Positions 14,340 to 29,843 of a DNA stretch of 29,843 nt are shown one piece after another. Each line of letters begins with the position of its first letter. The first letter of the stretch is position 1. The position numbers and the translations under genes were made by a program. Source of the stretch: a virus (Duplodnaviria > Heunggongvirae > Uroviricota > Caudoviricetes); the IMG/VR virus record IMGVR_UViG_3300021407_000008; one strand, written 5' to 3'. A model generated the notes under the pieces. The model made no database searches, was not told the DNA's origin, and saw only the letters and a list, made by a program, of their open reading frames with translations.

Positions 14340-15044
14340 TTACCTCGTTTCTCCTTTCGCGTTAATCCATTTCGTGCGCTTTAGATAAGATACTGCGCTC
14401 TCCATTAGCTCCGTATTGTGATAGAACTGCCCCATGCCCGCGTTGCACGTCCGACACAGAATACCACGAACGCACTTCCCGCATGATTTATCACCAGCGC
14501 AGCAATCATGGTCGTGATCTACATGCCAGAACGCTACTTCGTTTTCTTTGGGCCTTTTGTGGCACAGCGCAATTCCGCACTTGCCGCCTTGTTTTTCAAT
14601 GATCGCATAGAATTGATCTGCGGTTATATTGAATTTGTTTTTTAGATTTCGCGCCCAAAGTTTTTCTCTGTTATCTCTGGCATATCTGTTTACGCGGGTT
14701 CTGGTAGCAGCTATATTCTCTGGTGTGCGCGTTTTGTACTTGTAGTCGTCGTAGCATTCTTGACACATCCCCTTCGCGTAATGAATCCTGTCAGTATGGC
14801 AATCCGCCATGCGCTTACCAGTTCTCTTGCGGCGCTCTGGACGAACAATACTGTAGCACTCATAACACAAGCCAGCAGAGTAATGCTGTCTATCTGTATG
14901 GCAGGTTGCACGAACGTCTTTTACTATCGTTCCCGCCGGGCGTGATTTCTCATATCTGTAACGGTGAAAGCAGGCTTGACAAAGACCGTGGGCGCAGTGT
15001 GGTTCAAGTGGATGGCATGTAGCTTGTGGTCGTACTCTTGGCAT
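14340..15044 (-). CDS. Endonuclease VII-family HNH nuclease with three N-terminal Cys/His repeats
   Basis: QGGKCGIALC...HVDHDHDCC...CVRGILCRTCNAGMG; AAGGAG SD before ATG 15044. Confidence 0.9.
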   Translation of the reverse strand: MPRVRPQATCHPLEPHCAHGLCQACFHRYRYEKSRPAGTIVKDVRATCHTDRQHYSAGLCYECYSIVRPERRKRTGKRMADCHTDRIHYAKGMCQECYDDYKYKTRTPENIAATRTRVNRYARDNREKLWARNLKNKFNITADQFYAIIEKQGGKCGIALCHKRPKENEVAFWHVDHDHDCCAGDKSCGKCVRGILCRTCNAGMGQFYHNTELMESAVSYLKRTKWINAKGETR

Positions 15045-15064
15045 TTTGTTTCTCCTTAATGCCA

Positions 15065-15072
15065 ATTATACA
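15065..15072 (-). promoter_or_regulatory. TGTATAAT -10 element upstream of the EndoVII gene
   Basis: Exact TATAAT 20 nt upstream of the ATG; the same 8-mer precedes two other endonuclease genes. Confidence 0.5.
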
Positions 15073-21957: not shown

Positions 21958-22434
21958 CTAAACTCCTTCTGGAAAATTCAATGTTGCGAATTCCCCATGG
22001 TACTGCTTGGCTGCTGCGTCATATGCTTTGGCGGCTTCTATTTTGTTCTTAAAGTAGCCAAGGCTTTTTTGTTTGCCGTCTACCTTGATTCTAGCCGCCC
22101 AGTACGAACAACCGCGAACCACAAACCAAACCACGCCACGATATCCGCTTGTATTGTTTTTCTGTACAAGTTGCTTGCGGCGTTGATTATCGCATCTTGC
22201 CACGTACCGCAAATTGCTTTTCTGGTAATTCAACCTATTGAAATCTATGTGGTCACATTCGTAACCTTTTGGCGGTTGCCCCAGAATAAATTTGTGCATC
22301 AGTGTTCTATCTTTTGTGCTTACCACATATCCGCCATTAAGGATGCACCACTTGCTATAGGCGGTTAACTTTTCAAAGAACTCGTTGTCTACTATTGCAA
22401 ACATCTCAGAGTTTGTTAGGGAAATTAGCTTCAT
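21958..22434 (-). CDS. HNH-AP2 homing endonuclease
   Basis: MHKFIL...CDHIDFNRL...SNLR; AP2 domain NNTSGYRGV...WAARI...LGYF....EAAKAYDAAAKQYHGEFATLNF; ATG at 22434. Confidence 0.9.
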   Translation of the reverse strand: MKLISLTNSEMFAIVDNEFFEKLTAYSKWCILNGGYVVSTKDRTLMHKFILGQPPKGYECDHIDFNRLNYQKSNLRYVARCDNQRRKQLVQKNNTSGYRGVVWFVVRGCSYWAARIKVDGKQKSLGYFKNKIEAAKAYDAAAKQYHGEFATLNFPEGV

Positions 22435-22443
22435 TTGGAAGCT

Positions 22444-22451
22444 ATTATACA
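22444..22451 (-). promoter_or_regulatory. TGTATAAT -10 element upstream of HNH-AP2
   Basis: 9 nt upstream of ATG 22434, no SD. Confidence 0.5.
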
Positions 22452-22459
22452 CCCTATAC

Positions 22460-26937: not shown

Positions 26938-27570
26938 TTATATCCTGAAACCAGCAACGTTTAAATGCCAATGTTTGGCTCTGGTATCAGAAAAATGAAC
27001 ATCCCCAAAAACCTGTAAGACTTGTTGCCAAGTTATTGCGCTGAATTTTAACAATCTAACCAAGCAAGTTCGCCAGCCATAGTCAACTCGCACCGGCAGA
27101 TCGGCGGCGTCTGTGTGGATGATGCTAAATTCACTAATCCATCCTTTTTTAAAACTGGCGTTGGTATATTCCCTCTTCCCATTGCGGACCAAATAGAACG
27201 CTGCGCAACCATTGACCGCCTTGCTATCCTCAACAATTAAATCTGGATTTAGCTTTTGGACGCGCCGCACAAACTCAGAAGAATGCAGCAATTTTCCCAT
27301 CTGGCGTTCTTTGTTTTTGAAGTCAGATTGATCTTCGTAGCGCTGATCGTTGATTTGTTTGTCGGTCTGCTCCCACATTTGCAAAAGATGCTCACGGTCG
27401 CCAGCGGGTAGTAGATTCTCACGGTGCAGCGGCTCCACATACGGAGCCTTCATCCAAGTGTAGCAATCAGGCTGGAACCTTTCTTCTGGCTTAGGTAGGG
27501 GGGTGTATGTATCCGCTAGTTTAATTCCAGAACTACGTTTAACGTACTTATTCGCCAATATGGGATTCAT
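26938..27570 (-). CDS. Hypothetical phage protein
   Basis: 210 aa; C-terminal GWRTCLVRL...ITW..V...FG. Confidence 0.75.
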   Translation of the reverse strand: MNPILANKYVKRSSGIKLADTYTPLPKPEERFQPDCYTWMKAPYVEPLHRENLLPAGDREHLLQMWEQTDKQINDQRYEDQSDFKNKERQMGKLLHSSEFVRRVQKLNPDLIVEDSKAVNGCAAFYLVRNGKREYTNASFKKGWISEFSIIHTDAADLPVRVDYGWRTCLVRLLKFSAITWQQVLQVFGDVHFSDTRAKHWHLNVAGFRI

Positions 27571-28252
27571 CCAATACTTTAGGTTTAAAACCGTCGCGGG
27601 TTAACTGGATTTCTACGATGCCACCGGGGCCAACGGGAATGGAGTGGTAGCTTTGGTCGATCTTCTCGCCAAGGTATTCAAAAATGACTTGGATAAAGCT
27701 TCCATGGGTAACCATAACCCACGGCAAACCAGACATGGAACGCGATAGATATTTGTTAAACGATTCTTCGCATTCCGCGCTAAACTCCGCGTAAGACTCG
27801 CCGCCTACCGGAAGTTTTTCTGGATGATTTTTAAGGTCTAAAATCTGTTCGTCTACTTCATCTATTGGTTCGCCTTCTATTTCGGCTCCAAGGTGCCAAG
27901 ATCGTAGGTACGGGTCCATCTGTAATTCTTTGTCTTTTTCTAACGCAATCGGTAGGGCCGTTTCCTTGGTCCGCGACATATCATCCGTAACTACTCCGCC
28001 AATTTCAATGTCACTGAAAAACTTGGCTACCTTTTTAGCGTCCTCTTTGCCTTGCTCGTCTAGCGATTGGTTGGATAATCCGCGTACCAACTTTTGCTTG
28101 TCTTGTTTAATCTCGCAGTGGCGCACAATATACATAACCGTCCGACCAAGTTTGGACAGAACCGAACTAGGCGAATAGGAATTCAGTACATCACTAGACG
28201 TAGACGGCGAATCCCATTCTGGCATTAGTAAACTGGCAGGGGAATAACTCAC
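27548..28252 (-). CDS. Histidine phosphatase (phosphoglycerate mutase superfamily); start could be ATG 28135
   Basis: YIVRHCE (RHG-like), L...G..DA, SRTKETA, VTHGSFI. Confidence 0.85.
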   Translation of the reverse strand: MSYSPASLLMPEWDSPSTSSDVLNSYSPSSVLSKLGRTVMYIVRHCEIKQDKQKLVRGLSNQSLDEQGKEDAKKVAKFFSDIEIGGVVTDDMSRTKETALPIALEKDKELQMDPYLRSWHLGAEIEGEPIDEVDEQILDLKNHPEKLPVGGESYAEFSAECEESFNKYLSRSMSGLPWVMVTHGSFIQVIFEYLGEKIDQSYHSIPVGPGGIVEIQLTRDGFKPKVLDESHIGE

Positions 28253-28372: not shown

Positions 28373-28776
28373 GCCGATTCTCCCGATTGCGCCAATGAAT
28401 CCAATACGCTATTCGCTTCTTGTAATTCTTTGGCAGCCTCAGCTTTAAATTTCTGAGCTTTCTGTTCGGCCAGTTCTGCCATGGTATTAAGGATTGTTTC
28501 CATGTGCCGATTAAGCGCCCCAACAAGAAATTCTTGCGCATGCACGCCGCCAACCGAGGTCATCGAGCTACACGAAGAACTGCCGTAATAACCGGTATAA
28601 CAAGACAGGCCAACCTTAACCGCGAATACCGAGAAATCGGAACCAAGACTAAATTTTAGATCATGCTTATCGCAGCGCGAATCCTTGATTGCTTCGCGAT
28701 AATTAGGAACAATGCCGCGCAGGCGCTTGGCGGTATCGAGCAAAGCCTTAATCTCTTCAAACTTTTCCATTTTCAT
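28369..28776 (-). CDS. Hypothetical protein
   Basis: 135 aa; GAGGAG SD; C-terminal coiled coil. Confidence 0.75.
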
Positions 28777-28830
28777 GTTTAATTTTCCACTCCTCTAGAT
28801 ATTGGATGGAACTCTCTAGCGTTTGGATGT

Positions 28831-29406
28831 TTAGCCTCGTAATATTTTTGTTTCTTCGGTAACTATGCCGGTTAAGTCTATGTAATTTCCCTTGGTGTCT
28901 AATTTAAATTTGCGGCGCGGTAGTGGTTTTGTTTCCTTGATAAATCCAACCCTATATTGCGGTCCTTTGTCGTTTAACTTTCTTGATTCTTGGTACATCT
29001 GCTCACGAAGTTCTGGGTTTCTGGTTCTTACCGGCAGCGCCAGATATTTAAGCGCAAGATCAACCAACTCCTGTTTGCCTTCAATGAACGGCTTAATGCC
29101 AAGAAGAAAGCCGCGCTGTTTTTCCTTGCCGGTAATAAACCACTTACCAGAGCGTTTCCAAGCTTCGCCCTTGGTTTCAAAAATCTTGCGGCTATCCCCA
29201 GAAGTGTTTCCCTCTGGAACGTTTTTGGCGAAGAATTCCAAAATTCTTGGATGTGTGTTTGTTACGTTGAGATTGAGGGCATATTGAGTGTAGGCCCGCT
29301 TGTCGCCATCGTGGAAAGCATCACAACGGGCAATACCAATATGCCCTTCGCCGTCCATGTAAGCGCCCAATCTTGCCCATGTAATTTCGCTAATATTTTC
29401 AAACAT
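28831..29406 (-). CDS. Free-standing single-motif LAGLIDADG homing endonuclease
   Basis: ARLGAYMDGEGHIGI helix; YALNLNVTNT...ILEFF; W.I.G; FL..IKPFI..K. Confidence 0.85.
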   Translation of the reverse strand: MFENISEITWARLGAYMDGEGHIGIARCDAFHDGDKRAYTQYALNLNVTNTHPRILEFFAKNVPEGNTSGDSRKIFETKGEAWKRSGKWFITGKEKQRGFLLGIKPFIEGKQELVDLALKYLALPVRTRNPELREQMYQESRKLNDKGPQYRVGFIKETKPLPRRKFKLDTKGNYIDLTGIVTEETKILRG

Positions 29407-29432
29407 GTCCCAATTCTACAGTATCTCTCCCA

Positions 29433-29440
29433 ATTATACA
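29433..29440 (-). promoter_or_regulatory. TGTATAAT -10 element upstream of LAGLIDADG
   Basis: Exact TATAAT just downstream of the terminator. Confidence 0.5.
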
Positions 29441-29445
29441 AGCGC

Positions 29446-29476
29446 AAAAGAAAACACCCCAGATTTCTCTGGGGTG
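29446..29476 (-). terminator. Rho-independent terminator after the intron-containing gene
   Basis: 9-bp perfect stem CACCCCAGA-GAAA-TCTGGGGTG followed by TTTTCTTTT. Confidence 0.85.
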
Positions 29477-29495
29477 GGTAAGTTGTTGAAAACAA

Positions 29496-29523
29496 TCAGG
29501 ATATACTCGCTTCCGCTTTAATA
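29496..29523 (-). CDS. Terminal exon of the probable major capsid gene
   Basis: After splicing reads (L)IKAEASIS-stop; lies immediately before the terminator. Confidence 0.65.
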
Positions 29524-29753
29524 CCTTTGTTATCAAAGACTTACAAGTCTTTGAGCTAGTTCGTTTCCGTCTAGCTCTGCGTATCGCTACGCAGTGCGGA
29601 CTGACTCTTTACCCGGCGAGGGGTAATGCCCATACAGTCTCTACGCCTTCCATGTTTCCATGGCTTGGTTCGGCATTGTCTCCAATTGGAGAGTTCCACC
29701 GACTTTGAGCATTTTTCATCTTCAGGTCGCCCTGAAGCGGGCCTATTTGATTA
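29524..29753 (-). ncRNA. Group I self-splicing intron, 230 nt, no endonuclease ORF
   Basis: P1 with U-G at the 5' splice site; P2 GCGA loop; P3 UGCUCA/UGGGCA; P4 UCGGU/GCCGA; P5; P6a GAAA loop; P7 GACUG/CAGUC; P8 UACCC/GGGUA; P9 GCGA loop; terminal G; P10 AAUA/UAUU. Confidence 0.9.
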
Positions 29754-29843
29754 AGCCTAAAACGGGGGTGCAAGGCTGCTGATTGAGGGACCCTCATGGC
29801 CGCATACTTAAAGTTATAGGCACATGAAGCCCCTACAACTCTA
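29754..29843 (-). CDS. Upstream exon (partial) of the probable major capsid protein
   Basis: Open frame RVVGASCAYNFKYAAMRVPQSAALHPRFR(L); heads the late module and ends at a strong terminator; resembles capsid C-termini I recall (G..C.YN.K), but only 30 codons are visible. Confidence 0.5.

Follow-up and report, generated by a model that had tools for sequence, protein, structure and literature searches.

Collaborative homing is the leading idea for how introns without an open reading frame (ORF) and free-standing nucleases became mobile introns, and to our knowledge it rests on two tested phage systems. Its published layout comprises an ORF-less intron in a conserved gene and an adjacent gene of a free-standing nuclease (PMC3984707, PMC10448857). 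In S-PM2, the group I intron of psbA is accompanied by the adjacent free-standing F-CphI (Zeng, Bonocora and Shub 2009, as described in PMC3984707), an enzyme of the Endonuclease VII (Endo VII) catalytic family (PMC6083498). In T3/PhiI, the DNA-polymerase intron is found with the free-standing gene 5.3 (Bonocora and Shub 2009), and this layout was proposed as a route to mobile introns (PMC3984707, PMC10448857). The terminase intron of ICP1 has an adjacent T5orf172 nuclease gene, and turnover of the nuclease has been proposed there (PMC10448857). Here we describe a locus of this kind in a 29,843-nt stretch of DNA (IMG/VR record IMGVR_UViG_3300021407_000008; below, the window is this whole stretch) from an uncultured soil phage with a genome of ~103 kb. 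It consists of a group I intron, devoid of an ORF, close to the 3′ end of the capsid gene (intron B) and a free-standing gene of a LAGLIDADG nuclease behind that gene. The genes in the studied part are all on the minus strand, and the features, read in the direction of the genes, are as follows.

29754..29843 (-): the next-to-last capsid exon in part (about codons 293-322), running off the window end; its translation RVVGASCAYNFKYAAMRVPQSAALHPRFRL corresponds to residues 293-322 of the intron-free homologue P0005.
29524..29753 (-): intron B, a group I intron of 230 nt without an ORF, after the second base of codon L322 (Rfam RF00028, fold, covariation, restored C-terminus).
29496..29523 (-): last capsid exon, 28 nt; it completes codon L322 with its third base and continues with IKAEASIS (eight codons) and a TGA stop (reading of the sequence).
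29446..29476 (-): intrinsic terminator of the capsid gene, a 9-bp stem followed by a T-run (terminator scan).
29408..29440 (-): two tandem copies of TGTA(T/G)AATTGGGA, 20 nt apart, promoter-like (extended -10; motif scan).
28831..29406 (-): gene of a free-standing LAGLIDADG homing endonuclease of 191 aa, I-CreI-like and with a single motif, LGAYMDGEG (profile, predicted fold).
28769..28852 (-): remnant of an Endo VII-type homing-endonuclease gene, its 3′ end of ~30 last codons (tblastn, blastn).

From the comparison with related phages we infer that the capsid 3′ end and the spacer that follows it serve as a landing pad for selfish elements, with at least two layers. The history that we prefer, tentatively and with slightly less than even confidence, is a layered one, in which an Endo VII nuclease was associated with intron B, and a LAGLIDADG cassette, likely tied to an intron at codon 281 of the same gene, arrived later. 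The layout itself is already known; what stands out is that one nuclease family visibly took the place of another, that the introns have spread, and that LAGLIDADG nucleases may take part in collaborative homing.

To collect relatives, IMG/VR was queried with the capsid protein, yielding 30 loci, and more contigs were added by exact-protein look-ups. An intron-free homologue was obtained by searching 1.8 billion representative proteins, the query being the open frame that reaches the end of the window, and the rest of the capsid gene of the window phage was deduced from the proteins P0003 and P0004. In addition, we compared three complete ~100-kb genomes with terminal repeats, G001, G002 (the genome of locus L024) and G003; the window backbone is near G001 and G003 and distant from G002. 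No close match to the studied region was found among GenBank phages, either by DNA or by protein, and no match was returned by the exact-DNA scan of IMG/VR or by its single-protein scans with the nuclease and with the next gene.

The sources of the capsid homologues name them "N4-gp56 family major capsid protein," so the capsid label is correct. Removal of intron B restores the reading frame and the conserved capsid C-terminus. The predicted splice product ends with ...HPRFRL/IKAEASIS and a stop (the slash marks the joint), the intron-free homologue P0005 (330 aa) ends with ...HPRFRQLKTEASIS, as does L001, and the relative L027, intron-free here, ends with ...HPRFRLIKAEASIS. In the closer relatives L027, L024, and G001 the C-terminus is exactly RFRLIKAEASIS or RFRLLKAEASIS, and the peptide of the last exon is identical in L027, L024, L075, and G001-type relatives.

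In a scan of a 2.3-kb stretch, RF00028 matched positions 29763-29577 (-) with 50.0 bits, which equals the gathering score (E 3.8e-11). In the scan of the whole window at the gathering threshold this match, then just below the score, is not listed, and hence intron B is borderline on the generic model alone. The sister introns of L026 and L075 have 68.3 and 63.2 bits, respectively. As read from the sequence, the 5′ splice site follows T29754, P1 is formed by the exon GGCU and the guide GGCC with a U.G pair, the terminal G is at position 29524, and in P10 the first four bases of the 3′ exon, UAUU, pair with AAUA just upstream of the guide. The intron folds far better than shuffled sequences do (z = -5.1). 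The strongest support for the predicted intron is the comparison with relatives: an alignment of six related capsid introns shows 56-74% identity, and pairing is preserved despite changes on both sides at 36 of the 59 predicted pairs. Intron B is presumed to be splicing-competent. In a soil metatranscriptome, one contig spans the 3′ splice site in the unspliced form, and other contigs are identical to parts of the nuclease gene; as these are contigs and may stem from DNA carry-over, they demonstrate neither transcription nor splicing. A spliced joint was not found among the metatranscriptome contigs and reads, and the soil reads compared contained no intron-free or nuclease-free variant.

The nuclease ORF starts 117 nt past the 3′ splice site and 90 nt past the capsid stop, and therefore lies outside intron B. 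It is located behind the capsid terminator, and sequence homologous to this terminator is also found 3′ of the capsid gene in G001 and L027, both without the nuclease gene. For the 191-aa protein itself, we found no match in Pfam, in NCBIfam, or by direct sequence search of PDB. Distant proteins were then gathered from IMG/VR with a small alignment, and 29 relatives were aligned (alignment A3), nine of them matching Pfam LAGLIDADG_1. The A3 profile matches I-MsoI, I-CvuI, and I-CreI over the full length, with E from 1e-10 to 1e-8 per single domain. The AlphaFold2 model made with the alignment has pLDDT 84.6 (from the single sequence, pLDDT was 48, too poor for use) and fits the alpha-beta-beta-alpha-beta-beta-alpha fold, and its top Foldseek match is I-CreI (probability 1.0, TM 0.73, rmsd 2.9). 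The neighbours in the ESM Atlas are viral LAGLIDADG clusters.

The motif LGAYMDGEG occupies residues 13-21. Residues D18, E20, G21, and K111 are invariant across the 29 relatives, and in the profile alignment their counterparts in I-CreI and I-MsoI are the acidic residue of the motif and the lysine region. Between the nuclease and its L024 orthologue dN is 0.17, while dS is saturated, so that the dN/dS ratio cannot be given; by this comparison, the gene is under purifying selection. On the profile and the predicted fold, the 191-aa protein is a true I-CreI/I-MsoI-like LAGLIDADG enzyme, conserved and with an intact reading frame. It is probably active and, given its single motif and size, presumably homodimeric. 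I-CreI, I-MsoI, and I-CvuI are homodimeric LAGLIDADG enzymes encoded inside introns in the ribosomal DNA of algal organelles. The window enzyme shares with them the single-motif size class, the fold, and the aligned catalytic acidic residue and lysine but, unlike them, it is free-standing and phage-encoded, has only 15-20% identity to them, and is not recognised by the Pfam models. Viral metagenomes contain many free-standing genes of LAGLIDADG-like type; among 5.8 billion proteins, close relatives of this one form one other protein cluster only. Thus, the description of the locus in an earlier note, which had spoken of an ORF-less intron in a capsid gene and of a LAGLIDADG gene outside the intron and behind the terminator, is borne out by these comparisons.

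The conservation of the nuclease also bears on another possible role, that of a mainly trans-acting maturase for the related ORF-less capsid introns, or else of an inactive relic. Bacteria are known to have LAGLIDADG proteins that act as maturases (PMC3984707), and the capsid gene has several related introns without proteins of their own. However, the residues at the catalytic positions are invariant and the protein is under purifying selection, while L026 keeps three ORF-less introns without such a gene downstream. We regard this explanation as very improbable.

The Endo VII remnant directly follows the LAGLIDADG ORF and overlaps its end in another frame. It was found by tblastn with the Endo VII ORF of L076 (53% over 30 aa, E 1.7e-5, matching NIQFLQAAIQYLEEWRAKH) and by blastn (79% over 47 nt, E 1e-7). 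Its position behind the LAGLIDADG ORF implies that one nuclease gene replaced another. We did not find such a remnant in L024. The lineages with an Endo VII gene or its remnant behind the capsid gene have the following structure.

L075: an ORF-less intron inserted at exactly the nucleotide where intron B sits (Rfam 63 bits); a free-standing Endonuclease_7 gene 55 nt past the stop.
L076: an intron at codon 328; a terminator, then an Endo VII gene.
L077-L080: an intron at codon 320; a 38-aa N-terminal remnant of an Endo VII gene.
L006: no intron; an Endo VII gene behind the capsid gene.
Window: intron B at codon 322; the LAGLIDADG gene, then the C-terminal Endo VII remnant (28852-28769).

Hence, introns within codons 320-328 occur in four of these five lineages, compared to none of the ~27 capsid loci that have neither an Endo VII gene nor its remnant. 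The five lineages are related, yet three different insertion sites are involved. A scan of IMG/VR with the Endo VII alignment returned 80 loci but no new case, as this capsid gene lies upstream in just one of them, L006, which was known before.

The distribution of the LAGLIDADG gene points to a different intron. Beyond the window lineage, this gene is present only in L024/L035 (72-77% identical), at the same place, 96 nt past the capsid stop. The capsid gene of L024 has a single intron, ORF-less and 204 nt long, at codon 281, and its codon 322 is uninterrupted. In the window phage, the protein P0003 (a 154-aa ORF) starts as a read-through of an intron homologous to that of L024 and resumes exactly at RNWEPS, that is, at codon 281; the implied intron, deduced from the protein, would end ~33 nt beyond the window end (~29876 onward). 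G001 and G003, the closer relatives by backbone, have neither the nuclease gene nor the codon-281 intron, and the contig encoding P0004 has intron B and lacks the codon-281 intron. Therefore, the nuclease and the codon-281 intron occur together in both nuclease-bearing lineages, and intron B does not, so codon 281 is the best fit by distribution. We lean toward the codon-281 site as the target, and its intron as the partner, of the LAGLIDADG nuclease, with a confidence that stays below one half.

The earlier note had instead paired the nuclease with intron B, suggesting that the nuclease cuts intron-free capsid alleles across codon 322, that intron B protects its own allele, and that both are co-converted. 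The two elements are indeed 117 nt apart, in the layout of published collaborative homing (PMC3984707), and variants with 93-96% identity from two other soil DNA runs carry both. Moreover, the window junction is 7/11 symmetric and centred on the insertion point. On the other hand, the orthologous nuclease of L024/L035 is found with an uninterrupted codon-322 site encoding the same peptide, and the L075 intron at the identical site goes with an unrelated Endo VII gene. The contig encoding P0004 has intron B, and no close N-terminal LAGLIDADG fragment, for example its 81-aa ORF, was found among 5.8 billion proteins, although this argument is weak. The symmetry at codon 322 is unremarkable over intact alleles. 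The layout of an ORF-less intron adjoining a free-standing nuclease gene thus stands, whereas the expected co-occurrence does not, as intron B and the nuclease were not gained and lost together. We consider the pairing at codon 322 unlikely. The data suggest that intron B and the LAGLIDADG gene are neighbours in a crowded hot spot of selfish DNA rather than a proven team.

A homodimeric endonuclease is expected to prefer a pseudo-palindromic target, and for this reason we scored the 22-bp symmetry at codons 281 and 322. Over 23 intact alleles, the codon-281 site ranked 7th among 1996 centres, whereas the codon-322 site, averaged over intact alleles, ranked 215th of 1996. The codon-281 junction of L024, CCAGTT-GATCGT/AAGA-AACTGG, is symmetric at 7/11 positions and fits a homodimer target. 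The codon-322 junction is also symmetric, in the window (CCCGTTTTAGGCT/TATTAAAGCGG, 7/11) as well as in L026 (8/11). As symmetric junctions are found at both sites, palindromy gives no basis for choosing between codons 281 and 322.

The borders of the LAGLIDADG element could be traced by comparing its two copies. Homology extends from the tandem repeats to near residue 173 of the protein, and outside this stretch the flanks of the two copies differ, terminators included. Therefore, the LAGLIDADG gene together with the repeats forms a discrete cassette. The tandem motifs of 13 nt that precede the nuclease gene in the window are TGTATAATTGGGA and TGTAGAATTGGGA, the second one stopping one base before the ATG. 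The two LAGLIDADG copies share this arrangement, TGTAGAATTGGGA being repeated directly in tandem with a period of 20 nt and the repeat ending one base ahead of the start codon (7259-7291 in L024), and among 74 loci compared this pair was found only before the L024-type LAGLIDADG gene. The 13-nt motif occurs five times in the window, where 0.63 occurrences would be expected. A Shine-Dalgarno sequence is not apparent. The TATAAT that the earlier note ascribed to the gene is there, as an exact match inside the first tandem motif, but a sigma-70 scan that also requires a -35 element found no promoter before the nuclease gene. Two promoters of the extended -10 type, giving rise to a leaderless mRNA, are one possible reading of the tandem repeat, and a binding site is another. 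A resemblance of the repeat to the codon-281 junction was considered and dropped, since the similarity of the cassette 5′ flank to the capsid exons was not significant against shuffles.

The position of this cassette inside a former Endo VII gene is what would be expected from homing into the Endo VII gene or from competition with it, and it fits an alternative in which the elements are independent hitch-hikers. The nuclease would then spread by intronless homing, its target being the spacer, the displaced Endo VII gene, or another part of the capsid gene; immunity would come from its own insertion or from sequence divergence, and the introns would be unrelated tenants of the same hot spot. 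Indeed, gain and loss of nuclease genes and of introns are uncoupled among relatives (in L006 the nuclease gene is present without an intron; L026 and G001 have introns without a downstream nuclease gene), and the window encodes two further nucleases (Endo VII at 15065-14340; HNH-AP2 at 22452-21958). Nuclease-gene turnover has been proposed by Barth et al. as an alternative reading of such loci (PMC10448857). However, L024 has the same cassette without any Endo VII trace, and the cassette 5′ flank has no significant similarity to the capsid exons, so that the target is not recognisable this way. The associations of Endo VII with the introns at codons 320-328 (4/5 vs. 0/27) and of LAGLIDADG with the codon-281 intron (2/2) also argue for some linkage. 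We treat independent spread as a serious but doubtful alternative.

Under the layered history, which is also the simplest, the first layer would have been a free-standing Endo VII-type nuclease behind the capsid terminator, partnered with an ORF-less intron at codon 322, an arrangement that relatives still display. The second layer is the LAGLIDADG cassette, two promoter-like repeats and an ORF, which displaced most of the Endo VII gene and left its ~30 last codons. The LAGLIDADG homodimer would most likely cut nuclease-free capsid alleles of co-infecting relatives, and repair would copy the nuclease gene in, while an intron in cis would interrupt the target in the nuclease's own genome. Intron B persists beside the newer nuclease. 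A stricter version, in which two collaborative-homing systems succeeded each other, first Endo VII with the introns at codons 320-328 and then LAGLIDADG with the codon-281 intron (less likely, with intron B), may be possible, but we rate it as rather improbable.

Several observations weigh against the layered history. LAGLIDADG is known in only two lineages, and the nuclease gene and the codon-281 intron are within ~450 bp of each other and would be inherited jointly even without a partnership. As synonymous sites are saturated, the two nuclease copies may also go back to a common ancestor, with later loss from G001 and G003. The palindromic junctions at codon 322 (7/11 in the window, 8/11 in L026) would suit a LAGLIDADG homodimer as well. 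The Endo VII gene of L006 has no accompanying intron, which means that introns are not obligatory partners. Finally, the codon-281 intron of the window phage is deduced from the protein P0003.

Compared to S-PM2 with F-CphI, L075, L076, and the window remnant use the same Endo VII catalytic family, but the intact nuclease of the window is of the LAGLIDADG family, the host gene encodes the capsid protein, and the distribution of the nuclease does not follow intron B. Similar to T3/PhiI, an intron and a neighbouring nuclease gene are found together, and the codon-277 intron of L027 with its LAGLIDADG ORF may correspond to the merged state. The gene 5.3 nuclease of T3/PhiI belongs to the HNH enzymes, whereas one locus here combines several introns with nucleases of two families. 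As in ICP1, a free-standing nuclease gene stands beside an ORF-less intron in a structural or packaging gene. The nuclease family and the host gene are different, and the remnant of the displaced gene is still present here, making the turnover directly visible.

If the succession of two collaborative-homing systems were true, this would be the first LAGLIDADG case of collaborative homing, and the locus would offer a natural series of free-standing, intron-embedded (L027), and decayed states of the same players. In the clade of ~100-kb soil phages, one gene is found in many natural variants: introns of the same family occupy 11 or more sites, and nuclease genes of two unrelated families share a landing pad. 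It also contains nuclease ORFs both outside and inside introns, and a visible replacement of one nuclease gene by another.

Judging by breaks in tblastn alignments and by read-through ORFs, the capsid gene has insertions at codons ~191, 203, 277, 281, 300/301, 303, 308, 320, 322, and 328. By sequence comparison, a single compact intron family is present at 11 or more sites of the capsid gene in this clade of ~100-kb phages, and six insertion sites are within the last 30 codons. Some of these introns carry distant LAGLIDADG ORFs, in particular at codon 277 in L027 and at codon 191 in G001. The codon-277 intron of L027 (2804-3433), 13 nt upstream of the codon-281 site, encodes a 154-aa LAGLIDADG-like ORF, 28% identical to the free-standing nuclease of the window, and may show a nuclease gene and an intron merged. 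Self-splicing introns in late structural genes, sometimes several per gene, are also known from Cluster J mycobacteriophages, whose capsid and tail genes contain introns (PMC3706429); in contrast to these, one intron family is found here at 11 or more sites across close relatives.

In L026 (7094-7548), L076 (380-980), and L034 (1857-2763) the last 30 capsid codons are cut into tiny exons. The exon between the L026 introns at codons 300 and 308 is ~20 nt long; L076 is interrupted at codon 301 and again at codon 328, only three codons ahead of the stop; and G001 has introns at codons 191 (with the LAGLIDADG-like ORF) and 203. Just beyond the window end, the gene table of the 103-kb contig has ORFs of 388, 159, 247, and 154 aa in place of the expected single capsid gene of 330 aa, which indicates that this gene has been fragmented by gene callers. 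For annotation, this means that the capsid gene of such phages is split into several ORFs and mis-called.

A histidine-phosphatase gene follows the capsid locus at a varying distance (1066-1296 in L001, 2750-3379 in L078, 3321-3992 in L076, and 27548-28252 (-) in the window). The genes between the two differ in nearly every phage, and this region is thus a variable spacer. The further nucleases of the window are a 164-aa protein with HNH_3 and AP2 (21958-22452 (-)) and a 241-aa Endonuclease_7 protein (14340-15065 (-), Pfam E 1.4e-18). The start of the latter ORF is overlapped at 15072-15060 (-) by the motif TGTATAATTGGCA, which is similar to the repeats before the LAGLIDADG gene and may be a type of promoter shared by nuclease genes.

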